DNA of 64,000 bases from Octopus vulgaris (Eukaryota). Position 1 is the first letter of the stretch. Every line of letters begins with the position of its first letter. The stretch is taken from the NCBI GenBank assembly GCA_951406725.2, contig OX597822.1, forward strand, positions 55,676,001-55,740,000, in the 5' to 3' direction. Under the pieces are notes generated by a model. It saw nothing but the letters and a program-made list of their open reading frames with translations. It was not told the DNA's origin and made no database searches. A program made the translations under genes and the position numbers. Shown here piece after piece: positions 17,384 through 51,260 of the stretch.

Positions 17384-17616
17384 TTTAGCAAACTATTATT
17401 GAAATTGGTTACATGTGTCAATTAAAATATTTATATAATTTTTCTTTCTTTGTTTATCTTCGGTGCGTTGTTCATAAAAGATATCTTGCTACGGATAGGA
17501 ATATGGGAAGAGTAATAGGAGGTTTAAATCAATAAAGTTTCGAAACGGTGTGATATGTTCTGCAGTACGTTAACCGAAACTTATTCTAGTGAAGAAATTT
17601 TTTTGTTCAACTACAT

Positions 17617-17836
17617 GCGGGCTATAAAAATCGAATTATTTTGGCTTCATTTTCTTAACTGCGGGCTGTAAAAATCGAATTATTTTGGGTTCATTTTCTT
17701 AACTGCGGGCTGTAAAAATCGAATTATTTTGGGTTCATTTTCTTAACTGCGGGCTGTAAAAATCGAATTATTTTGGGTTCATTTTCTTAACTGCGGGCTG
17801 TAAAAATCGAATTATTTTGGGTTCATTTTCTTAACT
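17617..17836 (+). repeat. Tandem repeat, 5 x 44 bp
   Basis: GCGGGCTGTAAAAATCGAATTATTTTGGGTTCATTTTCTTAACT at 17617, 17661, 17705, 17749 and 17793. Confidence 0.95.
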
Positions 17837-17879
17837 GAAAACTTCCGTAAATCACTCCGACATGGACTAATTCCAACTG

Positions 17880-38244: not shown

Positions 38245-39068
38245 AGTAGTGAAGGTTCCGATTTTTAGACGGGTGTGTATCGGTGTTTGGGTGTTGTTTT
38301 GGTTTTCTTATTTTCTGGAAAGGGTTGTTGGAGGCGTGCTCTGTTTGAAAGACGGCTTCATAGTCTGAGAACCAAGTGGCGCTTTTCTCCCAGCGTTGGA
38401 GAGATTTTAGTTCTTCTTTTTCACAGTCCTCTTTCCATAGTTTGGAGAACTTCTCTTGATCTGGGCCTTGGGTCATTTTGCGAATTTCTTCGTTGATATC
38501 TTCATCGGTGGATTTTATTTTATCCTCATTCGTTTGGGCCCTCAATTTCAGAAGTTCTATTTCCATTTTCATTTTTTCCAGTGCCATTCTCTCCCTGAGG
38601 TGTCTTTGTGTTTCAGGTTCTTCTGTAATAGCTTTGAACTGGAATTTACGTGGGAGGATTAACGGGGTCCGGTTGAGCCATTTTTCGTATATATCCGCTT
38701 TGTTGTTGTTTTGGATCATCTTCCAAAAGGCGAACTTTCTATCTCTGAGTGATTTGTTCCATTGTGGTATTATGTGGTGTTTCATTTGGTATGTTGTTAG
38801 AGTATTGATCCCATATATTGACGCGTTTGGAGGTCCTTGGTTAGCGTTGTTAGAGAAAAATGTTCTAATTGTTTCGCATAAGTTTCCAAGGTTTTCGACA
38901 ATTTCGGAGGTTGTATTTTTCGTATATGTTTCTTCATTGTTCTCTCGATTGGGTTGAAGTGTCGAGTCGAATTTGTTCAAAAAAAGTTGACAAATTTGTG
39001 TTGATTTTCTTGAGTTCTTTCAGTATTTCTTCGTTTATGGAGGTGATTGTGTCTGTTTTTGTCGGCAT
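38245..39068 (-). CDS. PLE ORF1, partial copy (extra A near 38980; truncated by the gap)
   Basis: Identical to the other ORF1 copies apart from a homopolymer indel. Confidence 0.8.
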
Positions 39069-39188
39069 TTTCTGTATCTCGTGTGGGTTAATGATATGTA
39101 TAAGAGTGAAAAGGAACACACGAGTTGATATATATGAAAAAACAAGTAAAAAATAGAAAATGCTAAAATAATTTTATAGTGAACATTT

Positions 39189-39226
39189 CAGTACCGGTTT
39201 CGGTCATTTTGAGACCTTTTCAACTG
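39189..39226 (-). ncRNA. Minimal hammerhead ribozyme (U3-A8) in PLE 3' repeat
   Basis: CAG-UUGAAAA-GGUC(UCAAAAU)GACC-GAAA-CCGGUA^CUG. Confidence 0.8.
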
Positions 39227-39924
39227 TAACGATTAAATAATTAAATTTAGAAAAATTAGAAGAAAAGTTTTTTTAAAACAATATTTCTATAGTAGTGTTC
39301 AGATTTAAGTGGCATTCTGCCTTTCTCTGACTCCCTTGTTTGCACTTGTGTGTTCGAGGTAGTTGTGAGTTCTTGGTAGGGTAGTAGAGGGAAGGCTGGT
39401 GAGGAAAGGGGGTGGGAGAATCTGGGAGTGCCCTGATGGTCGTATTTTGAATGGTCAGTGGCGGCTGGCAGTCTCAGTTCAATTCAGGATTGTTTATAGA
39501 ATTAGTGTAGGTGTTATACTAAAAAACATTAGTGACAAACTTAAGGGGTAGGGAGTGGAGAAGAAGAAGAAGAAGAAGAAGAAGAAGAAGAAGAAGAAGA
39601 AGAAGAAGAGAAGGAGAAGATGATGGTGATGGTGGTGATGATTATGACGACGATGATGATGATAACGATGATGATGAAGAAGAAGAAGAAGAAGAAGAAG
39701 AAGAAGGAGGAGAAGATGGTGGTGATGATGGTGGTGATGATGATGACGCCGATGATGATGATAACGATGATGATGAAGAAGAAGAAGAAGAAAAAAACAG
39801 AGAAGGGAGAATATGAATGGGTGTAAATATAGCTATGAAGGGGCTGATTAGTAATGGATTCTATGGAGTGTAGTATTTGTGTGTGTATATATATTTTTTT
39901 CTTTTATTCTAAAGTTGAGGTATA

Positions 39925-42255
39925 TTAATTGTTTGTCGTAGACCCATTAAGAAGTGGCTTGTATTTTGTAATAAAGAGATTTTCTTTACTTATTCTTTGT
40001 CTCGAGGTTGTATCGTCCCTAAATTGGTAGAGGGGGAAAATTCTGAAGTTTGGTGTTTTTTTGTTGGCGCAAGTATCTATGTGTTGGCTAAAAGCTATTT
40101 TTCTGTTTTGGGGAATTTTTATCTGGGATCTGTGCAGGGCCATTCGTTTACGCAAACCATTTTTTGTTTGGCCTATGTACTGCTCTTGACACCCGGAGCA
40201 GGTTAGTGAGTATATTAGGTTCTCCGAAGCACATGTGAAGTTGCTTTTCACTGTAAACCGTTGTCCCTGTTTGAAGGAGAACTCCGAACCCTCGATTAGA
40301 TAGTCGCATATCCCGCAATTGGGTCTTCCACATTTTTTTACTGTCGGCTTCTGTGTTGAAGAGTGAATTCGGGCTTGTGTAAGGAGACTTTTCATGGATC
40401 TAGGCTGTCTTTTGCTTTTTATGATCGTGTGTGTTTGGAGGATTGTGTTCATTCTGTGGTCTTTTTTTAGGAGGGGTATGTTGTGGAGGATGGTGTCGAA
40501 GGCTTCGTTATTGAGAGGGTTGTGTGTGGAGATGTATGGTAAGGCTTTTGGTTGTAAGTTTTTCTTTGATTTGGGATGTCTCAGTTCCTTGATGTTAAGT
40601 TGAAGGGCACGTTGAATGCACTTGTCAATAAGTGAAGGTGGATAGTTCCTGGTGATTAGGGTATCTTTTAGTTCTTGTAGTCGTGTGTCTCTGGTGTTTG
40701 CGTTAGAGACTATAGTGCATATCCTTTTTGCTAGATTGAAGGGGATATTCATCCTGGTGTGTCTGGGGTGGCATGAATTGAATGGAAGATATTGCTTAGA
40801 GTCTGTAGGCTTATAGTATATGTCTGTTTCTATTATATTATTAGCTTTCTTAATGAGGATATCGAGGAAGGGGAGTTGTTGTTGGCTATATTCCATCGTG
40901 AATTGGATGTTTACGTCCAGTCCGTTTAAAATTTTCTGGAATTCTATGAGTTTTTCTATATTTTTATGCCAAAGGATGAAACAGTCATCTAGATATCTCT
41001 TCCAGTTGTTTTCTATGTAGATGGAGAAAGGGCTGCCATATCTTTCTAGAACCTTACGATACAGACTGATCTCTAGGTATCCTATGACTAGGTTGGCAAA
41101 GGAGGGGGCCATTCGTGTACCCATCGCAGTCCCCGATTTTTGTCGGTAGAAGTTGTCATTGAAGGCGAAGAAGTTATTTTCCAGGATGAATTTAACCCCT
41201 TCTATCACAAATTCTTTTTTGATGCGGTGTGGTAGTTCGTTGGCGTGATTCTCTAGCCAGAATTGGATTGCCTCTAGTCCTAGGTTGTGGGGGATATTGG
41301 AGTAGAGGTTGACTACATCGAAGGATACCAGTATGGTGTTTTTGTTTATAGTATTCGGTAGGTGATTGAGCATATCTAAGTCGTCCCTTATATAGCTTTT
41401 GACATGTTTGAGGAGTGGTTTTAACAGGGTGTCTAAAAAGTTACTGAGGCGGTGGGTTTCGCATGCGGGACCTGCTATTATGGGTCTCAATTTGAGGTCA
41501 TTAGGATTAGGGACTTTAATTATTTTGTCTGTAGCTATCTTGCATGCGTTGCTTATTTTTTCACTTTTGTGGATCTTAGGTATACCGTAGAATTGGCTAG
41601 TTTTACTTGTGAAATTGGTCATATACTCATATTCTTTGTCGGTGAGCCCTGCTTTGTATGGGTTTAATATGGATTTTAGTTCCCTCATTATTTTTTGTTG
41701 ACTGTAGTTTTGTGCCTTTTCATAGTATGTTGTGTCTTCCAGCATAGAAAGTACCAAAGTTATGTAAAATGTCGTATCCATTAAGACAACAGCACTCCCT
41801 TTATCGGCCTCTTTGATTGTTATTGTTTTATCTAGTTTTAATTTGTTCAACTCAGCCCATTCTTTTTTGCTGAAGTTTGGTTTGTGTTTTTGTTTGTGCA
41901 TATGTTGATATGGGTAATTTGATATGTGGTCACAGAAATCATCAAGTGTTTTATTCTTACCTTTCGAGGGGGTGTAGTTACTCCTATTTCTGGCTAACGA
42001 TTCGTCCTCGTTGTATTTATCGTATAGCTCCTCAGTAAGTCTTAATTTTCTGCAGAATTCTGCGATGTCTTCTTTCATTTCATTGTAGTTGGGGTGTTGT
42101 GGGGTGGGTGTAAACTTGAGTCCTTTGGAAAGTATGTTTATTTGGTTTGCTGTTAGTTCCTTGTGAGTTAGATTAATAATTTTTATTACTTTTGGTTCCT
42201 CCTGCTTGTTTGGTGCTATCTTGTGTCTCTGTGTTTGCGTATTGGGTCTAAAAAA
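39925..42255 (-). CDS. PLE ORF2: RT + Cys linker + GIY-YIG endonuclease (frame open from the slippery site; first ATG at 42078)
   Basis: INLT..L....IL.KGLKFTPTP, ADKG, YGIPKIHK, RPII, SFDVVNLY, GTAMG, YLDD, LPFLD, CGRPNCGIC, LIY..YIGQT. Confidence 0.95.
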   Translation of the reverse strand, partial: FFRPNTQTQRHKIAPNKQEEPKVIKIINLTHKELTANQINILSKGLKFTPTPQHPNYNEMKEDIAEFCRKLRLTEELYDKYNEDESLARNRSNYTPSKGKNKTLDDFCDHISNYPYQHMHKQKHKPNFSKKEWAELNKLKLDKTITIKEADKGSAVVLMDTTFYITLVLSMLEDTTYYEKAQNYSQQKIMRELKSILNPYKAGLTDKEYEYMTNFTSKTSQFYGIPKIHKSEKISNACKIATDKIIKVPNPNDLKLRPIIAGPACETHRLSNFLDTLLKPLLKHVKSYIRDDLDMLNHLPNTINKNTILVSFDVVNLYSNIPHNLGLEAIQFWLENHANELPHRIKKEFVIEGVKFILENNFFAFNDNFYRQKSGTAMGTRMAPSFANLVIGYLEISLYRKVLERYGSPFSIYIENNWKRYLDDCFILWHKNIEKLIEFQKILNGLDVNIQFTMEYSQQQLPFLDILIKKANNIIETDIYYKPTDSKQYLPFNSCHPRHTRMNIPFNLAKRICTIVSNANTRDTRLQELKDTLITRNYPPSLIDKCIQRALQLNIKELRHPKSKKNLQPKALPYISTHNPLNNEAFDTILHNIPLLKKDHRMNTILQTHTIIKSKRQPRSMKSLLTQARIHSSTQKPTVKKCGRPNCGICDYLIEGSEFSFKQGQRFTVKSNFTCASENLIYSLTCSGCQEQYIGQTKNGLRKRMALHRSQIKIPQNRKIAFSQHIDTCANKKTPNFRIFPLYQFRDDTTSRQRISKENLFITKYKPLLNGSTTNN

Positions 42256-43451
42256 TGAATGCGGTGGTTGGGACGGTAGCTAGTATATAGTTGTTCTTTG
42301 TTGATTAGGGGTCTCCTGTTGTGATTTGTGGTGTGTGTTCTTGGAGCAGTATTGAGGAGAGCATCCCGATATCCCATATTCTGGTGTGGTGTTCTAGGAG
42401 GCCTTCGTTGGTAATCATTGCAAGTGGTGTGGGTTTGTTGTGCATGGTTGTTTAACCGGTTAATGGGACGAAGATTTCGTTGGTAACTCCTTTGGGTGGG
42501 GATGAGGTTGCAGTGTCTATGCTGTGGGTGTTGATTTATCCTTTCTCTGCTTGAAGTGGGGGTATTCCTGATATTGTATCGCTGGCTGCTTACAGAGTTG
42601 GGGTTAGGTCCTGTATTCTTTTTTTGATAGTAGTGAAGGTTCCGATTTTTAGACGGGTGTGTATCGGTGTTTGGGTGTTGTTTTGGTTTTCTTATTTTCT
42701 GGAAAGGGTTGTTGGAGGCGTGCTCTGTTTGAAAGACGGCTTCATAGTCTGAGAACCAAGTGGCGCTTTTCTCCCAGCGTTGGAGAGATTTTAGTTCTTC
42801 TTTTTCACAGTCCTCTTTCCATAGTTTGGAGAACTTCTCTTGATCTGGGCCTTGGGTCATTTTGCGAATTTCTTCGTTGATATCTTCATCGGTGGATTTT
42901 ATTTTATCCTCATTCGTTTGGGCCCTCAATTTCAGAAGTTCTATTTCCATTTTCATTTTTTCCAGTGCCATTCTCTCCCTGAGGTGTCTTTGTGTTTCAG
43001 GTTCTTCTGTAATAGCTTTGAACTGGAATTTACGTGGGAGGATTAACGGGGTCCGGTTGAGCCATTTTTCGTATATATCCGCTTTGTTGTTGTTTTGGAT
43101 CATCTTCCAAAAGGCGAACTTTCTATCTCTGAGTGATTTGTTCCATTGTGGTATTATGTGGTGTTTCATTTGGTATGTTGTTAGAGTATTGATCCCATAT
43201 ATTGACGCGTTTGGAGGTCCTTGGTTAGCGTTGTTAGAGAAAAATGTTCTAATTGTTTCGCATAAGTTTCCAAGGTTTTCGACAATTTCGGAGGTTGTAT
43301 TTTTCGTATATGTTTCTTCATTGTTCTCTCGATTGGGTTGAAGTGTCGAGTCGAATTTGTTCAAAAAAGTTGACAAATTTGTGTTGATTTTCTTGAGTTC
43401 TTTCAGTATTTCTTCGTTTATGGAGGTGATTGTGTCTGTTTTTGTCGGCAT
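42216..43451 (-). CDS. PLE ORF1, 411 aa (MPTKTD...), coiled-coil plus basic/N-rich tail
   Basis: Intact and identical in two units. Heptad-rich LRERMALEKMKMEIELLKLRAQ...INEEIRK; R/N/H-rich C-terminus. Confidence 0.85.
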   Translation of the reverse strand: MPTKTDTITSINEEILKELKKINTNLSTFLNKFDSTLQPNRENNEETYTKNTTSEIVENLGNLCETIRTFFSNNANQGPPNASIYGINTLTTYQMKHHIIPQWNKSLRDRKFAFWKMIQNNNKADIYEKWLNRTPLILPRKFQFKAITEEPETQRHLRERMALEKMKMEIELLKLRAQTNEDKIKSTDEDINEEIRKMTQGPDQEKFSKLWKEDCEKEELKSLQRWEKSATWFSDYEAVFQTEHASNNPFQKIRKPKQHPNTDTHPSKNRNLHYYQKKNTGPNPNSVSSQRYNIRNTPTSSRERINQHPQHRHCNLIPTQRSYQRNLRPINRLNNHAQQTHTTCNDYQRRPPRTPHQNMGYRDALLNTAPRTHTTNHNRRPLINKEQLYTSYRPNHRIHFLDPIRKHRDTR

Positions 43452-43571
43452 TTTCTGTATCTCGTGTGGGTTAATGATATGTATAAGAGTGAAAAGGAAC
43501 ACACGAGTTGATATATATGAAAAAACAAGTAAAAAATAGAAAATGCTAAAATAATTTTATAGTGAACATTT

Positions 43572-43609
43572 CAGTACCGGTTTCGGTCATTTTGAGACCT
43601 TTTCAACTG
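43572..43609 (-). ncRNA. Minimal hammerhead ribozyme (U3-A8)
   Basis: Identical to 39189-39226. Confidence 0.8.
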
Positions 43610-44350
43610 TAACGATTAAATAATTAAATTTAGAAAAATTAGAAGAAAAGTTTTTTTAAAACAATATTTCTATAGTAGTGTTCAGATTTAAGTGGCATTC
43701 TGCCTTTCTCTGACTCCCTTGTTTGCACTTGTGTGTTCGAGGTAGTTGTGAGTTCTTGGTAGGGTAGTAGAGGGAAGGCTGGTGAGGAAAGGGGGTGGGA
43801 GAATCTGGGAGTGCCCTGATGGTCGTATTTTGAATGGTCAGTGGCGGCTGGCAGTCTCAGTTCAATTCAGGATTGTTTATAGAATTAGTGTAGGTGTTAT
43901 ACTAAAAAACATTAGTGACAAACTTAAGGGGTAGGGAGTGGAGAAGAAGAAGAAGAAGAAGAAGAAGAAGAAGAAGAAGAAGAAGAAGAAGAAGGAGAAG
44001 GAGAAGATGATGGTGATGGTGGTGATGATTATGACGACGATGATGATGATAATGATGATGAAGAAGAAGAAGAAGAAGAAGAAGAAGAAGAAGAAGAAGA
44101 AGAAGAAGAAGAAGAAGAAGAAGAAGAAGAAGGAGGAGAAGATGGTGGTGATGATGGTGGTGATGATGATGACGCCGATGATGATGATAACGATGATGAT
44201 GAAGAAGAAGAAGAAGAAAAAAACAGAGAAGGGAGAATATGAATGGGTGTAAATATAGCTATGAAGGGGCTGATTAGTAATGGATTCTATGGAGTGTAGT
44301 ATTTGTGTGTGTATATATATTTTTTTCTTTTATTCTAAAGTTGAGGTATA

Positions 44351-46681
44351 TTAATTGTTTGTCGTAGACCCATTAAGAAGTGGCTTGTATTTTGTAATAA
44401 AGAGATTTTCTTTACTTATTCTTTGTCTCGAGGTTGTATCGTCCCTAAATTGGTAGAGGGGGAAAATTCTGAAGTTTGGTGTTTTTTTGTTGGCGCAAGT
44501 ATCTATGTGTTGGCTAAAAGCTATTTTTCTGTTTTGGGGAATTTTTATCTGGGATCTGTGCAGGGCCATTCGTTTACGCAAACCATTTTTTGTTTGGCCT
44601 ATGTACTGCTCTTGACACCCGGAGCAGGTTAGTGAGTATATTAGGTTCTCCGAAGCACATGTGAAGTTGCTTTTCACTGTAAACCGTTGTCCCTGTTTGA
44701 AGGAGAACTCCGAACCCTCGATTAGATAGTCGCATATCCCGCAATTGGGTCTTCCACATTTTTTTACTGTCGGCTTCTGTGTTGAAGAGTGAATTCGGGC
44801 TTGTGTAAGGAGACTTTTCATGGATCTAGGCTGTCTTTTGCTTTTTATGATCGTGTGTGTTTGGAGGATTGTGTTCATTCTGTGGTCTTTTTTTAGGAGG
44901 GGTATGTTGTGGAGGATGGTGTCGAAGGCTTCGTTATTGAGAGGGTTGTGTGTGGAGATGTATGGTAAGGCTTTTGGTTGTAAGTTTTTCTTTGATTTGG
45001 GATGTCTCAGTTCCTTGATGTTAAGTTGAAGGGCACGTTGAATGCACTTGTCAATAAGTGAAGGTGGATAGTTCCTGGTGATTAGGGTATCTTTTAGTTC
45101 TTGTAGTCGTGTGTCTCTGGTGTTTGCGTTAGAGACTATAGTGCATATCCTTTTTGCTAGATTGAAGGGGATATTCATCCTGGTGTGTCTGGGGTGGCAT
45201 GAATTGAATGGAAGATATTGCTTAGAGTCTGTAGGCTTATAGTATATGTCTGTTTCTATTATATTATTAGCTTTCTTAATGAGGATATCGAGGAAGGGGA
45301 GTTGTTGTTGGCTATATTCCATCGTGAATTGGATGTTTACGTCCAGTCCGTTTAAAATTTTCTGGAATTCTATGAGTTTTTCTATATTTTTATGCCAAAG
45401 GATGAAACAGTCATCTAGATATCTCTTCCAGTTGTTTTCTATGTAGATGGAGAAAGGGCTGCCATATCTTTCTAGAACCTTACGATACAGACTGATCTCT
45501 AGGTATCCTATGACTAGGTTGGCAAAGGAGGGGGCCATTCGTGTACCCATCGCAGTCCCCGATTTTTGTCGGTAGAAGTTGTCATTGAAGGCGAAGAAGT
45601 TATTTTCCAGGATGAATTTAACCCCTTCTATCACAAATTCTTTTTTGATGCGGTGTGGTAGTTCGTTGGCGTGATTCTCTAGCCAGAATTGGATTGCCTC
45701 TAGTCCTAGGTTGTGGGGGATATTGGAGTAGAGGTTGACTACATCGAAGGATACCAGTATGGTGTTTTTGTTTATAGTATTCGGTAGGTGATTGAGCATA
45801 TCTAAGTCGTCCCTTATATAGCTTTTGACATGTTTGAGGAGTGGTTTTAACAGGGTGTCTAAAAAGTTACTGAGGCGGTGGGTTTCGCATGCGGGACCTG
45901 CTATTATGGGTCTCAATTTGAGGTCATTAGGATTAGGGACTTTAATTATTTTGTCTGTAGCTATCTTGCATGCGTTGCTTATTTTTTCACTTTTGTGGAT
46001 CTTAGGTATACCGTAGAATTGGCTAGTTTTACTTGTGAAATTGGTCATATACTCATATTCTTTGTCGGTGAGCCCTGCTTTGTATGGGTTTAATATGGAT
46101 TTTAGTTCCCTCATTATTTTTTGTTGACTGTAGTTTTGTGCCTTTTCATAGTATGTTGTGTCTTCCAGCATAGAAAGTACCAAAGTTATGTAAAATGTCG
46201 TATCCATTAAGACAACAGCACTCCCTTTATCGGCCTCTTTGATTGTTATTGTTTTATCTAGTTTTAATTTGTTCAACTCAGCCCATTCTTTTTTGCTGAA
46301 GTTTGGTTTGTGTTTTTGTTTGTGCATATGTTGATATGGGTAATTTGATATGTGGTCACAGAAATCATCAAGTGTTTTATTCTTACCTTTCGAGGGGGTG
46401 TAGTTACTCCTATTTCTGGCTAACGATTCGTCCTCGTTGTATTTATCGTATAGCTCCTCAGTAAGTCTTAATTTTCTGCAGAATTCTGCGATGTCTTCTT
46501 TCATTTCATTGTAGTTGGGGTGTTGTGGGGTGGGTGTAAACTTGAGTCCTTTGGAAAGTATGTTTATTTGGTTTGCTGTTAGTTCCTTGTGAGTTAGATT
46601 AATAATTTTTATTACTTTTGGTTCCTCCTGCTTGTTTGGTGCTATCTTGTGTCTCTGTGTTTGCGTATTGGGTCTAAAAAA
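44351..46681 (-). CDS. PLE ORF2 RT + GIY-YIG, second intact copy (first ATG 46504)
   Basis: Protein identical to the 39925 copy. Confidence 0.95.
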   Translation of the reverse strand, partial: FFRPNTQTQRHKIAPNKQEEPKVIKIINLTHKELTANQINILSKGLKFTPTPQHPNYNEMKEDIAEFCRKLRLTEELYDKYNEDESLARNRSNYTPSKGKNKTLDDFCDHISNYPYQHMHKQKHKPNFSKKEWAELNKLKLDKTITIKEADKGSAVVLMDTTFYITLVLSMLEDTTYYEKAQNYSQQKIMRELKSILNPYKAGLTDKEYEYMTNFTSKTSQFYGIPKIHKSEKISNACKIATDKIIKVPNPNDLKLRPIIAGPACETHRLSNFLDTLLKPLLKHVKSYIRDDLDMLNHLPNTINKNTILVSFDVVNLYSNIPHNLGLEAIQFWLENHANELPHRIKKEFVIEGVKFILENNFFAFNDNFYRQKSGTAMGTRMAPSFANLVIGYLEISLYRKVLERYGSPFSIYIENNWKRYLDDCFILWHKNIEKLIEFQKILNGLDVNIQFTMEYSQQQLPFLDILIKKANNIIETDIYYKPTDSKQYLPFNSCHPRHTRMNIPFNLAKRICTIVSNANTRDTRLQELKDTLITRNYPPSLIDKCIQRALQLNIKELRHPKSKKNLQPKALPYISTHNPLNNEAFDTILHNIPLLKKDHRMNTILQTHTIIKSKRQPRSMKSLLTQARIHSSTQKPTVKKCGRPNCGICDYLIEGSEFSFKQGQRFTVKSNFTCASENLIYSLTCSGCQEQYIGQTKNGLRKRMALHRSQIKIPQNRKIAFSQHIDTCANKKTPNFRIFPLYQFRDDTTSRQRISKENLFITKYKPLLNGSTTNN

Positions 46682-47877
46682 TGAATGCGGTGGTTGGGAC
46701 GGTAGCTAGTATATAGTTGTTCTTTGTTGATTAGGGGTCTCCTGTTGTGATTTGTGGTGTGTGTTCTTGGAGCAGTATTGAGGAGAGCATCCCGATATCC
46801 CATATTCTGGTGTGGTGTTCTAGGAGGCCTTCGTTGGTAATCATTGCAAGTGGTGTGGGTTTGTTGTGCATGGTTGTTTAACCGGTTAATGGGACGAAGA
46901 TTTCGTTGGTAACTCCTTTGGGTGGGGATGAGGTTGCAGTGTCTATGCTGTGGGTGTTGATTTATCCTTTCTCTGCTTGAAGTGGGGGTATTCCTGATAT
47001 TGTATCGCTGGCTGCTTACAGAGTTGGGGTTAGGTCCTGTATTCTTTTTTTGATAGTAGTGAAGGTTCCGATTTTTAGACGGGTGTGTATCGGTGTTTGG
47101 GTGTTGTTTTGGTTTTCTTATTTTCTGGAAAGGGTTGTTGGAGGCGTGCTCTGTTTGAAAGACGGCTTCATAGTCTGAGAACCAAGTGGCGCTTTTCTCC
47201 CAGCGTTGGAGAGATTTTAGTTCTTCTTTTTCACAGTCCTCTTTCCATAGTTTGGAGAACTTCTCTTGATCTGGGCCTTGGGTCATTTTGCGAATTTCTT
47301 CGTTGATATCTTCATCGGTGGATTTTATTTTATCCTCATTCGTTTGGGCCCTCAATTTCAGAAGTTCTATTTCCATTTTCATTTTTTCCAGTGCCATTCT
47401 CTCCCTGAGGTGTCTTTGTGTTTCAGGTTCTTCTGTAATAGCTTTGAACTGGAATTTACGTGGGAGGATTAACGGGGTCCGGTTGAGCCATTTTTCGTAT
47501 ATATCCGCTTTGTTGTTGTTTTGGATCATCTTCCAAAAGGCGAACTTTCTATCTCTGAGTGATTTGTTCCATTGTGGTATTATGTGGTGTTTCATTTGGT
47601 ATGTTGTTAGAGTATTGATCCCATATATTGACGCGTTTGGAGGTCCTTGGTTAGCGTTGTTAGAGAAAAATGTTCTAATTGTTTCGCATAAGTTTCCAAG
47701 GTTTTCGACAATTTCGGAGGTTGTATTTTTCGTATATGTTTCTTCATTGTTCTCTCGATTGGGTTGAAGTGTCGAGTCGAATTTGTTCAAAAAAGTTGAC
47801 AAATTTGTGTTGATTTTCTTGAGTTCTTTCAGTATTTCTTCGTTTATGGAGGTGATTGTGTCTGTTTTTGTCGGCAT
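46642..47877 (-). CDS. PLE ORF1, second intact copy
   Basis: Protein identical to the 42216 copy. Confidence 0.85.
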   Translation of the reverse strand: MPTKTDTITSINEEILKELKKINTNLSTFLNKFDSTLQPNRENNEETYTKNTTSEIVENLGNLCETIRTFFSNNANQGPPNASIYGINTLTTYQMKHHIIPQWNKSLRDRKFAFWKMIQNNNKADIYEKWLNRTPLILPRKFQFKAITEEPETQRHLRERMALEKMKMEIELLKLRAQTNEDKIKSTDEDINEEIRKMTQGPDQEKFSKLWKEDCEKEELKSLQRWEKSATWFSDYEAVFQTEHASNNPFQKIRKPKQHPNTDTHPSKNRNLHYYQKKNTGPNPNSVSSQRYNIRNTPTSSRERINQHPQHRHCNLIPTQRSYQRNLRPINRLNNHAQQTHTTCNDYQRRPPRTPHQNMGYRDALLNTAPRTHTTNHNRRPLINKEQLYTSYRPNHRIHFLDPIRKHRDTR

Positions 47878-47997
47878 TTTCTGTATCTCGTGTGGGTTAA
47901 TGATATGTATAAGGGTGAAAAGGAACACACGAGTTGATATATATGAAAAAACAAGTAAAAAATAGAAAATGCTAAAATAATTTTATAGTGAACATTT

Positions 47998-48035
47998 CAG
48001 TACCGGTTTCGGTCATTTTGAGACCTTTTCAACTG
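47998..48035 (-). ncRNA. Minimal hammerhead ribozyme (U3-A8)
   Basis: Identical motif in the partial upstream repeat. Confidence 0.8.
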
Positions 48036-48185
48036 TAACGATTAAATAATTAAATTTAGAAAAATTAGAAGAAAAGTTTTTTTAAAACAATATTTCTATA
48101 GTAGTGTTCAGATTTAAGTGGCATTCTGCCTTTCTCTGACTCCCTTGTTTGCACTTGTGTGTTCGAGGTAGTTGTGAGTTCTTGG

Positions 48186-50375
48186 TTTACACCCACCCCA
48201 CAACACCCCAACTACAATGAAATGAAAGAAGACATCGCAGAATTCTGCAGAAAATTAAGACTTACTGAGGAGCTATACGATAAATACAACGAGGACGAAT
48301 CGTTAGCCAGAAATAGGAGTAACTACACCCCCTCGAAAGGTAAGAATAAAACACTTGATGATTTCTGTGACCACATATCAAATTACCCATATCAACATAT
48401 GCACAAACAAAAACACAAACCAAACTTCAGCAAAAAAGAATGGGCTGAGTTGAACAAATTAAAACTAGATAAAACAATAACAATCAAAGAGGCCGATAAA
48501 GGGAGTGCTGTTGTCTTAATGGATACGACATTTTACATAACTTTGGTACTTTCTATGCTGGAAGACACAACATACTATGAAAAGGCACAAAACTACAGTC
48601 AACAAAAAATAATGAGGGAACTAAAATCCATATTAAACCCATACAAAGCAGGGCTCACCGACAAAGAATATGATTATATGACCAATTTCACAAGTAAAAC
48701 TAGCCAATTCTACGGTATACCTAAGATCCACAAAAGTGAAAAAATAAGCAACGCATGCAAGATAGCTACAGACAAAATAATTAAAGTCCCTAATCCTAAT
48801 GACCTCAAATTGAGACCCATAATAGCAGGTCCCGCATGCGAAACCCACCGCCTCAGTAACTTTTTAGACACCCTGTTAAAACCACTCCTCAAACATGTCA
48901 AAAGCTATATAAGGGACGACTTAGATATGCTCAATCACCTACCGAATACTATAAACAAAAACACCATACTGGTATCCTTCGATGTAGTCAACCTCTACTC
49001 CAATATCCCCCACAACCTAGGACTAGAGGCAATCCAATTCTGGCTAGAGAATCACGCCAACGAACTACCACACCGCATCAAAAAAGAATTTGTGATAGAA
49101 GGGGTTAAATTCATCCTGGAAAATAACTTCTTCGCCTTCAATGACAACTTCTACCGACAAAAATCGGGGACTGCGATGGGTACACGAATGGCCCCCTCCT
49201 TTGCCAACCTAGTCATAGGATACCTAGAGATCAGTCTGTATCGTAAGGTTCTAGAAAGATATGGCAGCCCTTTCTCCATCTACATAGAAAACAACTGGAA
49301 GAGATATCTAGATGACTGTTTCATCCTTTGGCATAAAAATATAGAAAAACTCATAGAATTCCAGAAAATTTTAAACGGACTGGACGTAAACATCCAATTC
49401 ACGATGGAATATAGCCAACAACAACTCCCCTTCCTCGATATCCTCATTAAGAAAGCTAATAATATAATAGAAACAGACATATACTATAAGCCTACAGACT
49501 CTAAGCAATATCTTCCATTCAATTCATGCCACCCCAGACACACCAGGATGAATATCCCCTTCAATCTAGCAAAAAGGATATGCACTATAGTCTCTAACGC
49601 AAACACCAGAGACACACGACTACAAGAACTAAAAGATACCCTAATCACCAGGAACTATCCACCTTCACTTATTGACAAGTGCATTCAACGTGCCCTTCAA
49701 CTTAACATCAAGGAACTGAGACATCCCAAATCAAAGAAAAACTTACAACCAAAAGCCTTACCATACATCTCCACACACAACCCTCTCAATAACGAAGCCT
49801 TCGACACCATCCTCCACAACATACCCCTCCTAAAAAAAGACCACAGAATGAACACAATCCTCCAAACACACACGATCATAAAAAGCAAAAGACAGCCTAG
49901 ATCCATGAAAAGTCTCCTTACACAAGCCCGAATTCACTCTTCAACACAGAAGCCGACAGTAAAAAAATGTGGAAGACCCAATTGCGGGATATGCGACTAT
50001 CTAATCGAGGGTTCGGAGTTCTCCTTCAAACAGGGACAACGGTTTACAGTGAAAAGCAACTTCACATGTGCTTCGGAGAACCTAATATACTCACTAACCT
50101 GCTCCGGGTGTCAAGAGCAGTACATAGGCCAAACAAAAAATGGTTTGCGTAAACGAATGGCCCTGCACAGATCCCAGATAAAAATTCCCCAAAACAGAAA
50201 AATAGCTTTTAGCCAACACATAGATACTTGCGCCAACAAAAAAACACCAAACTTCAGAATTTTCCCCCTCTACCAATTTAGGGACGATACAACCTCGAGA
50301 CAAAGAATAAGTAAAGAAAATCTCTTTATTACAAAATACAAGCCACTTCTTAATGGGTCTACGACAAACAATTAA
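48186..50375 (+). CDS. PLE ORF2 RT + GIY-YIG, inverted 5'-truncated copy (starts at FTPTP)
   Basis: Same protein with one E>D change; the conserved N-terminal motif is cut by the inversion junction. Confidence 0.9.
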   Translation, partial: FTPTPQHPNYNEMKEDIAEFCRKLRLTEELYDKYNEDESLARNRSNYTPSKGKNKTLDDFCDHISNYPYQHMHKQKHKPNFSKKEWAELNKLKLDKTITIKEADKGSAVVLMDTTFYITLVLSMLEDTTYYEKAQNYSQQKIMRELKSILNPYKAGLTDKEYDYMTNFTSKTSQFYGIPKIHKSEKISNACKIATDKIIKVPNPNDLKLRPIIAGPACETHRLSNFLDTLLKPLLKHVKSYIRDDLDMLNHLPNTINKNTILVSFDVVNLYSNIPHNLGLEAIQFWLENHANELPHRIKKEFVIEGVKFILENNFFAFNDNFYRQKSGTAMGTRMAPSFANLVIGYLEISLYRKVLERYGSPFSIYIENNWKRYLDDCFILWHKNIEKLIEFQKILNGLDVNIQFTMEYSQQQLPFLDILIKKANNIIETDIYYKPTDSKQYLPFNSCHPRHTRMNIPFNLAKRICTIVSNANTRDTRLQELKDTLITRNYPPSLIDKCIQRALQLNIKELRHPKSKKNLQPKALPYISTHNPLNNEAFDTILHNIPLLKKDHRMNTILQTHTIIKSKRQPRSMKSLLTQARIHSSTQKPTVKKCGRPNCGICDYLIEGSEFSFKQGQRFTVKSNFTCASENLIYSLTCSGCQEQYIGQTKNGLRKRMALHRSQIKIPQNRKIAFSQHIDTCANKKTPNFRIFPLYQFRDDTTSRQRISKENLFITKYKPLLNGSTTNN

Positions 50376-51070
50376 TATACCTCAACTTTAGAATAAAAGA
50401 AAAAAATATATATACACACACAAATACTACACTCCATAGAATCCATTACTAATCAGCCCCTTCATAGCTATATTTACACCCATTCATATTCTCCCTTCTC
50501 TGTTTTTTTCTTCTTCTTCTTCTTCATCATCATCGTTATCATCATCATCGGCGTCATCATCATCACCACCATCATCACCACCATCTTCTCTCCTTCTTCT
50601 TCTTCTTCTTCTTCTTCTTCTTCATCATCATCGTTATCATCATCATCGTCGTCATAATCATCACCACCATCACCATCATCTTCTCCTTCTCCTTCTTCTT
50701 CTTCTTCTTCTTCTTCTTCTTCTTCTTCTTCTTCTTCTCCACTCCCTACCCCTTAAGTTTGTCACTAATGTTTTTTAGTATAACACCTACACTAATTCTA
50801 TAAACAATCCTGAATTGAACTGAGACTGCCAGCCGCCACTGACCATTCAAAATACGACCATCAGGGCACTCCCAGATTCTCCCACCCCCTTTCCTCACCA
50901 GCCTTCCCTCTACTACCCTACCAAGAACTCACAACTACCTCGAACACACAAGTGCAAACAAGGGAGTCAGAGAAAGGCAGAATGCCACTTAAATCTGAAC
51001 ACTACTATAGAAATATTGTTTTAAAAAAACTTTTCTTCTAATTTTTCTAAATTTAATTATTTAATCGTTA

Positions 51071-51108
51071 CAGTTGAAAAGGTCTCAAAATGACCGAAAC
51101 CGGTACTG
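51071..51108 (+). ncRNA. Minimal hammerhead ribozyme (U3-A8), predicted cleavage after 51105
   Basis: CAGTTGAAAAGGTCTCAAAATGACCGAAACCGGTACTG, about 98 nt before the element 3' end. Confidence 0.8.
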
Positions 51109-51195
51109 AAATGTTCACTATAAAATTATTTTAGCATTTTCTATTTTTTACTTGTTTTTTCATATATATCAACTCGTGTGTTCCTTTTCACCCTT

Positions 51196-51260
<65 letters not shown>

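Follow-up and report, generated by a model that had tools for sequence, protein, structure and literature searches.

A two-frame Penelope-like retrotransposon of Octopus vulgaris with a predicted -1 frameshift signal

A 64,000-nucleotide stretch of the Octopus vulgaris genome (GenBank assembly GCA_951406725.2, contig OX597822.1, positions 55,676,001 to 55,740,000; called the window below, in whose coordinates all positions are given) carries a young Penelope-like retrotransposon. It is a Neptune-type Penelope-like element (PLE) with an endonuclease (EN+) and two open reading frames (ORFs). The frames overlap in the -1 register, a slippery heptamer lies in phase with ORF1 within the overlap, the heptamer is conserved among relatives, and both frames are under purifying selection. 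On this sequence evidence, the reverse transcriptase (RT) and endonuclease encoded by ORF2 are very probably expressed by programmed -1 frameshifting at U UUU UUA.

In the proposed mechanism, ribosomes on a single mRNA would shift by -1 at the heptamer, as in gag-pol. The products would be an abundant ORF1 protein (411 aa) and a minor fusion of ORF1, RT and endonuclease (1,175 aa); we infer both the shift and the ratio of the two proteins from sequence. If the ORF1 core is the normal Penelope N-terminal domain, as is fairly likely, such a fusion would rebuild the usual domain order of a single-ORF Penelope. Gag and LINE ORF1 proteins act in the assembly of ribonucleoprotein particles (RNPs), and by analogy the frameshift may supply extra free copies of the N-terminal domain for this purpose. 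If the frameshift operates, annotations that list ORF2 only leave out the first third of the enzyme, a point to heed when a Penelope RT is to be expressed.

The overlap of the two frames at the octopus locus

The features on which the argument depends are the following.

42216..43451, minus strand: ORF1, 411 aa, from the ATG at 43451 to the TAG at 42216-42218, with the C-terminal end ...IHFLDPIRKHRDTR; residues 8-75 are a predicted helical hairpin or coiled coil and residues 85-243 a conserved four-helix core, followed by a low-complexity tail rich in N, R, Q, H and T
42249..42255, minus strand: slippery heptamer T TTT TTA in ORF1 phase (Phe400-Leu401), the predicted -1 frameshift site
42216..42218, minus strand: ORF1 stop codon TAG, next base C, 11 codons past the TTA codon; candidate roadblock
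39925..42279, minus strand: ORF2 frame, 784 aa from stop to stop, -1 to ORF1, with its first ATG at codon 68 (42078)
42100..42183, minus strand: conserved block KIINL...GLKFTPTP, under purifying selection and 5' of the first ORF2 ATG
40930..41493, minus strand: RT core, aa 263-450 of ORF2 (Pfam RVT_1, E 3e-8)
40306..40332, minus strand: linker zinc-finger-like motif CGRPNCGIC (CX4CxxC) of the Neptune/Nematis type
39955..40218, minus strand: GIY-YIG endonuclease (aa 688-775; Pfam E 4e-4), in which two Cys separate the GIY half from the YIG half

A first-pass annotation, made from the letters alone, had already proposed the frameshift, and its geometry stands. The RT frame is -1 to ORF1 and is closed by a TAG at 42280-42282, eight codons upstream of the heptamer; the distance of about 27 nt given there is correct when the count starts at the TAG's first base. 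The heptamer is in ORF1 phase at 42255-42249 and again at 46681-46675, the conserved N-terminal block does precede the first ATG of ORF2, and the computed product of a -1 shift would have the length stated there, 1,175 aa.

By itself the heptamer proves little, because ORF1 holds a second in-phase run of six T (T6) at codon 29, whose Phe-Leu is not kept in two related families (B and C, below); the case rests on conservation. The two full tandem copies at the locus differ at one base over 39925-43556, so that the heptamer in both is one piece of evidence, not two. Under the codon usage of the element's own family (A), a Phe-Leu pair is spelled T TTT TTR with a probability of 0.013.

The T6 run is genuine and is found throughout the family. 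Exact-flank searches of the genome return 132 matches, of which 130 read T6 and two T7. A seventh T, which would join the frames into one continuous ORF, is thus not the family state, and both T7 copies are 5'-truncated. In a separate sample, 30 loci were picked with a foreign ORF2 protein as query, and 28 of them passed a motif filter that two missed. Twenty-four of the 28 carry T6A in phase; two are truncated before the site, one has T5 and one a substitution. The contigs of four independent sequencing runs (from three studies, RNA origin presumed) cross the site in 4/4 cases with no indel listed there, although contigs drop rare forms, may derive from DNA or antisense transcripts, and are uninformative on strand or expression level. 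An assembly error or a fresh mutation at the T run is ruled out by the 130/132 matches and the contigs of these runs.

Conservation of the heptamer in relatives

Relatives keep the heptamer in phase. T TTT TTR in ORF1 phase is found in four families of the genome (A-D) and in 11 distant loci, with ORF2 identities of 28-72%. All four families carry CATTTTTTAGAC, and B, C and D retain the two ORFs and the -1 overlap. Compared with A, families B and C are 45-47% identical in ORF1 and 68-72% in ORF2. Family B comprises loci L063 and L066, family C L067-L069 and family D L078; with these, the genome has three or more families of this type besides A. In B and C, copies whose frames are intact are numerous.

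More distant evidence comes from 97 loci in metagenome-assembled genomes (MAGs) and metagenomes. The junction was viewed in 21 of them and then in 10 (four in both sets), chosen by similarity or by a stop near the RT motif. All ten loci of the same RT clade that include upstream DNA (L083, L100-103 and L106-110, L108 being a near-duplicate of L107) have T TTT TTR in ORF1 phase. In each of these, ORF2 is open from the heptamer, which lies 0-15 codons past the ORF2-frame stop.

A profile of the ORF1 core finds 1,157 clusters (50% identity) at E<=0.001. Among the matches listed are 149 new proteins, of which the 87 of at least 340 aa were kept and 62 shorter ones, 19 of them with Phe-Leu, were excluded as likely fragments. 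Phe-Leu occurs in the last 45 aa of 69 of the 87 full-length homologues, compared with 8.7+-2.7 in shuffles (maximum 18 in 1000 runs) and with 5/87 in the preceding 45 aa. The residue before the pair can be encoded by a codon ending in T in 68 of the 69, where about 20% of residues could not. No fused form appears among the best 120 ORF2 homologues (longest 803 aa, in a search extending to 1,372) or the best 150 ORF1 homologues (longest 546 aa).

Both frames are under purifying selection, and this includes the ORF2 codons before the first ATG. Between families, codons 31-67 of ORF2 have dN of 0.10-0.19 against dS of at least 1.5 or saturated, and the ORF1 core has dN of 0.18-0.21 against dS of at least 1.4. 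Codons 31-67 are therefore translated without an ATG. The first in-frame ATG lies inside or past the conserved block at 12 of the 14 sites where this can be evaluated.

The RT phylogeny separates the loci accordingly. In a midpoint-rooted FastTree phylogeny of 73 RTs, restricted to unnamed loci, a branch with support 0.998 separates those with the ORF1 family from all others. All full-length members of this frameshift clade have the linker finger, and loci without it mostly consist of one ORF with the usual N-terminal domain. No MAG or metagenome locus matched both the ORF1 profile and the N-terminal-domain profile.

An in-phase heptamer also occurs in a second lineage, represented by L137 (912-3500, ORF1 1-975) and L149 (1917-3848 and 3800-5674). 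Their RTs form a separate lineage with 28-30% identity, and GIY-YIG is present in L137; L149 ends before its endonuclease region. They combine an unrelated ORF1 with the same in-phase T TTT TTA and have stops at +12 and +11 codons. Their ORF1 has no Pfam match; we take it to resemble an SGNH/GDSL esterase from the motif GDSN...DG(I/V)H.

Several other arrangements were seen among these records. L143, L156 and related loci are PLEs in which no GIY-YIG was seen and whose long ORF1 overlaps the RT frame at length. In L143, the ORF1 sequence ...QKN... near the opening of the RT frame could, at the protein level, be an A AAA AAC shift site. L088 (188-3205) and L112 are single ORFs with a linker zinc finger, in which a long acidic spacer comes after an ordinary N-terminal domain; they are a possible unsplit counterpart of the two-ORF form. 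A number of relatives (P0034, P0076, P0081, P0083, P0086, P0100 and L083-L099) sit in bacterial symbiont or MAG records, for example Thiodiazotropha and a Solemya gill symbiont; these are most likely host DNA carried into the assemblies.

Alternatives to a frameshift and the possible stimulus

Several observations weigh against a programmed shift. Ten of the 15 sites compared at the DNA level read TTTTTTAG, which would also suit a splice acceptor. An ATG precedes the conserved block in family C and L137, and 50 of 120 predicted ORF2 homologues start 5' of the block, as placed by prokaryotic gene callers that also accept GTG and TTG. L144, from the clade of L137, has no such heptamer at its junction. 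Finally, a slippery site on its own is much less efficient than one accompanied by a stem-loop, and no stimulatory hairpin or pseudoknot is conserved in families A-C, as judged by minimum free energy and z-scores at the 15 sites.

One alternative is termination followed by reinitiation, or another non-AUG start. Here ORF2 would be restarted at a start codon overlapping the ORF1 stop, giving a separate RT-endonuclease protein. At the exact position where ATA overlaps the stop in A and B, the ORF2 frame of family C reads ACG ATG G, proteins P0003 and P0005 end in ...DTRW, the same spelling as family C, and the 50 early-starting homologues begin 1-61 residues before the block. Reinitiation would also account for the importance of the stop position. 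However, it leaves unexplained why T TTT TTR is in phase at 15/15 sites and why ORF2 opens at the heptamer. The ORF2-frame codon at stops 11 codons on is ATA, GTA or CTA, all poor starts, and an ATG before the block is missing at the 12 sites noted above; reinitiation may still apply to family C and L137, which have one. This route is very improbable. Splicing is a comparably improbable account, in which TTTTTTAG would be a 3' splice acceptor and ORF2 would be connected in the spliced mRNA to an exon further upstream or to the N-terminus of ORF1. Penelopes are known from the literature to carry and retain introns. Since five of the 15 sites lack the AG (L083, L102, L109, L110 and L137), the heptamer is not merely an acceptor, and an acceptor need not stay in phase with ORF1. 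The T tract is kept in 138 of 139 genomic copies, the exception being an inversion junction, and a GTRAG donor-like site occurs only once in the 1.7 kb upstream. The first-pass annotation had named a splice, or a separate start, seen in RNA as what would overturn its reading. The test available is a weak one: no joints were found, and contigs from all four presumed-RNA runs cross the site unspliced. When 62 family-A loci were searched for skipped segments, there was one hit, not at the heptamer. The 5' ends of family-A copies are scattered. A splice acceptor as the conserved feature is largely rejected by the AG-less sites, the kept T tracts and the lack of joints. Neither reinitiation nor splicing explains a phase-locked heptamer.

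A further possibility is that the element is a broken single-ORF Penelope which lost one base in the T run and has been spread in trans by an intact partner. The two T7 copies do fuse the frames, and T runs are prone to indels, but both of these copies are 5'-truncated. Every family, down to 33% ORF2 identity, would have to have suffered an identical break in an identical phase, and the homologue searches described above contain no fused form. This reading is largely refuted already and keeps only a minimal probability.

If the frameshift is accepted, its stimulus has to be accounted for. The earlier observation that no strong hairpin follows the heptamer holds at the locus, where the 45 nt past it fold at 0 kcal/mol, and it can be extended: the absence is general in the group, and the distance to the ORF1 stop is conserved instead. 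Good hairpins exist at only two of the 15 sites, L100 (z -3.75) and L103 (z -1.9). A scan for simple H-type pseudoknots at 14 sites found none that beats shuffles, and three wider windows in family A gave no conserved fold either.

The stop position, by contrast with the fold, follows a pattern. In 71 homologues with a Phe-Leu trace, stops at codons +1 to +10 after the heptamer occur once in 707 codon positions. The ORF1 stop then falls at +11 in 24/70 homologues, and later stops occur at about 0.09 per codon. Homologues with a stop at +11 come from several branches of the ORF1 tree and have a median identity of 26%. The DNA sites, which overlap the protein set, have the stop at +11 in seven of 15 and in none earlier. 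C follows the stop in 6/7 of these and in 0/8 of the others, and among the 46 later stops 14 lie at +21/22 or +31-33, where 5.3 are expected. The tests of this +4 C and of the periodicity are post hoc, on small related sets, and their P values treat relatives as independent.

One model consistent with this pattern is a ribosome queue, in which the ribosome terminating at the ORF1 stop acts as a roadblock. With the stop at +11, a terminating ribosome would keep the one behind it on the heptamer, its P site occupied by UUU and its A site by UUA. A stop closer to the heptamer would clear a 0-frame ribosome from the roadblock position, which would fit the stop-free zone. Mouse disomes have two states one codon apart, of 59-60 and 62-63 nt, and their A sites have been placed at 15 and 45 nt as counted from the 5' end (PMC7397865), which puts neighbouring ribosomes 10 or 11 codons apart. 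Readthrough is favoured by a C at +4 (PMC13341110), and in yeast without New1 ribosomes queue behind stops (PMC12852954). Against the queue, one mammalian study reports that ribosomes accumulate little behind a terminating one and finds no pause motif past stop codons, the stop lies beyond +11 in 46 of 70 homologues, and the statistical tests carry the limits just given. On balance the roadblock is a credible suggestion that falls somewhat below an even chance.

The same tentative standing applies to the wider proposal that follows from it. A widespread EN+ Penelope clade may use a structure-free -1 signal, in which an ORF1 stop in poor context, one collided-ribosome length past U UUU UUR, parks a terminating ribosome and so causes the next one to slip; RT output would then scale with ribosome load. 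At least two lineages, whose ORF1s are unrelated, would carry the signal, and here it would split off the ancestral N-terminal domain as a gag-like protein. If the spacing does reflect a queue, it would stimulate frameshifting without an RNA structure, and hundreds of variants of it exist in nature. A literature search found no title or beginning of an abstract that describes a terminating ribosome as a -1 shift stimulator.

Alternatively, the shift is real and has another stimulator: basal slippage, a variable hairpin, a bound protein such as ORF1, or a needed 10-residue tail of ORF1. This is a variant within the frameshift reading, and counted as a share of all outcomes it comes close to even. 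The hairpins of L100 and L103 end at codon +11, Gly, Pro and Arg (with GC-rich codons) are common at +1 to +11, and termination rarely causes collisions in the mammalian study just mentioned. However, the most active family, A, has no fold, the 10-residue tail has no conserved sequence, and neither the +4 C nor the excess at +21 and +31 is predicted.

The ORF1 protein, the locus and known systems

The first-pass annotation called ORF1 a coiled-coil protein. Residues 15-85 give weak coiled-coil matches, and beyond the coiled coil there is a conserved helical core. AlphaFold predicts residues 1-255 as helical throughout (pLDDT 88.6), with two N-terminal helices followed by the core helices 85-98, 100-132, 152-198 and 202-243 around a conserved Pro loop. 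A model of the N-terminal domain of single-ORF Penelopes (pLDDT 88.0) has helices at 4-17, 19-50, 67-109 and 112-151. The lengths are 14, 32, 43 and 40 in the single-ORF domain and 14, 33, 47 and 42 in ORF1, in both cases around an iiP..l.k loop.

This likeness suggests that the ORF1 core is the normal Penelope N-terminal domain, split off and extended, which is a fairly likely reading. A deeper, trimmed HHalign comparison of the two scores 21.4 (E 0.007) in the same helix register; 29 block shuffles reach at most 15.2 and the reversed profile 9.7. The HHalign probability of homology is 5.5%, a point against it, and comparisons of less depth fell short of significance (E 0.097 and 0.18). Among the top 50 VIA matches of each model, 18 are common to both, several in matching register, though these are generic helical bundles. 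ORF1 may thus be a split-off domain rather than a captured ORF of the Athena type. If its core is the usual N-terminal domain, it offers a handle on Penelope RNP assembly.

Database searches add little on either protein. ORF1 has no Pfam family above cut-off and no Atlas match, its PDB sequence matches are limited to the weak coiled-coil ones (best E 0.002), and Foldseek finds no counterpart of its model in PDB or BFVD at E<=0.001. The best VIA match (Z 8.6, rmsd 5.1 over 160 residues) is generic for helical bundles. The absence of a fold match is not evidence of a new fold. ORF2 has no PDB sequence match.

Other features of the locus belong to the element and its further copies.

43556..43620, minus strand: hammerhead-like motif in the pseudo-LTR (pLTR), also at 39173-39237, 47982-48046 and 51060-51124
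44351..47877, minus strand: second full tandem copy of ORF1 and ORF2, unit 4,426 bp, heptamer at 46675-46681
38245..39377, minus strand: third tandem copy, reduced by an assembly gap to its start, with the pLTR and the 5' part of ORF1
48185..51203, plus strand: inverted, 5'-truncated copy (most of ORF2, 3' UTR and pLTR), ending in a (TA)n tract

All four pLTR copies of the hammerhead-like motif give a weak match to Rfam HH9 (19.7 bits, E 0.83), below the gathering threshold. The core at 43556-43620 on the minus strand reads UUGAAAA, which differs from the usual hammerhead core, CUGAnGA. The palindromic CCGG after its GAAA is in line with PLE hammerheads, for which a small palindromic helix III has been described. 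About 255 CCCTAA telomeric repeats (36589-38137) and then a gap of 100 N (38145-38244) lie beside the tandem array; their adjacency is unproven, being a scaffold join. GAA/GAT triplet microsatellites occur in the 3' UTR (43945-44225, also 39560-39800 and 50500-50740) and vary in length between otherwise near-identical copies. Elsewhere in the window are a degenerate (ATGT/GTGT)n array of about 4.7 kb (28645-33407), the source of many spurious long ORFs, and a 44-bp tandem repeat present five times with 98% matches (17616-17837).

The assignment to the EN+ PLEs rests on a PLE-type RT followed by a C-terminal GIY-YIG, whose Pfam match is just under the curated cut-off and whose Cys pair between GIY and YIG is seen in LIYSLTCSGCQEQYIG. 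Pseudo-LTRs and the partial tandem and inverted structure are present at the locus, and copy ends adjoin (TA)n here and in several other copies. The earlier assignment to the Neptune type agrees with the CX2-5CxxC linker (CGRPNCGIC) and the (TA)n target, with the reservation that the linker is also found in Nematis and Naiad.

Canonical EN+ PLEs have a single ORF (Craig et al. 2021, PMC8557442; also PMC6431247 and PMC6515669), and PLEs in general are described as having either one ORF with an endonuclease or two without (Arkhipova and Yushenova 2019, PMC6431247). The octopus element departs from the first group by two ORFs in 130/132 genomic matches and in its relatives. It departs from the second by its GIY-YIG and by copies dispersed over many chromosomes, the telomeric array lying across an assembly gap. 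As for a -1 frameshift site, heptamer phase, an open -1 frame and conservation are found and a downstream structure is not. A large two-ORF EN+ group, as the 1,157 ORF1 clusters represent, with a gag-pol-like signal would blur the divide between single-ORF EN+ and two-ORF EN-minus elements.

No published programmed shift in EN+ PLEs was found in a search that left outside some earlier Penelope papers and Repbase/Dfam, which could mention two-ORF Neptunes. The portions seen of PMC6515669, PMC3846280, PMC5408684, PMC4209133 and two bioRxiv preprints contain none, and those of the frameshifting review PMC5009743 do not mention Penelope. The supplement of PMC8557442 includes two Chara Chlamys families with an upstream ORF1.

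One of the closest known systems is the Neptune clade (PMC8557442), with which the element shares the RT and C-terminal GIY-YIG, a CX2-5CxxC finger, a pseudo-LTR (here with a putative hammerhead-like motif), tandem and inverted copies and a (TA)n target. Those elements are described as having a single ORF, whereas the N-terminal part here is a separate 411-aa ORF linked through a conserved -1 heptamer. In a killifish Neptune consensus, ORF1 is short and does not overlap the next frame, and the text excerpted does not mention a frameshift (10.1101/2025.05.22.655539). In single-ORF elements of the Penelope/Poseidon type (L090, L092, L120, L127 and others), a label read from the missing linker finger, the N-terminal domain is fused to the RT in one frame. 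It is without the extra N-terminal helices and basic tail of ORF1, and the sequence match is weak.

Two ORFs are also found in the EN-minus elements Athena/Terminon and Coprina (PMC6431247, PMC8557442). These have no endonuclease and are telomeric; the octopus element has a GIY-YIG, is dispersed and has no pseudoknot. The legend of Fig. 1 in PMC8557442 describes ORF1 as separable by a frameshift with a pseudoknot and lists a coiled coil, but the clades concerned are not readable from the legend.

Among viral systems, stop position also tunes the shift at SARS-CoV-2 ORF1a/1b, by another proposed route (Bhatt et al. 2021, PMC8168617). There the stop is five codons on and is proposed to clear ribosomes so that a pseudoknot can refold; here it is never that close, it peaks at +11, and there is no pseudoknot. 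HIV-1 gag-pol (PMC5009743, PMC7618472) relies on a stable stem-loop as stimulator, of which no conserved counterpart is seen here. Nevertheless, the element resembles it in the heptamer U_UUU_UUA, with a structural ORF upstream and the polymerase downstream.

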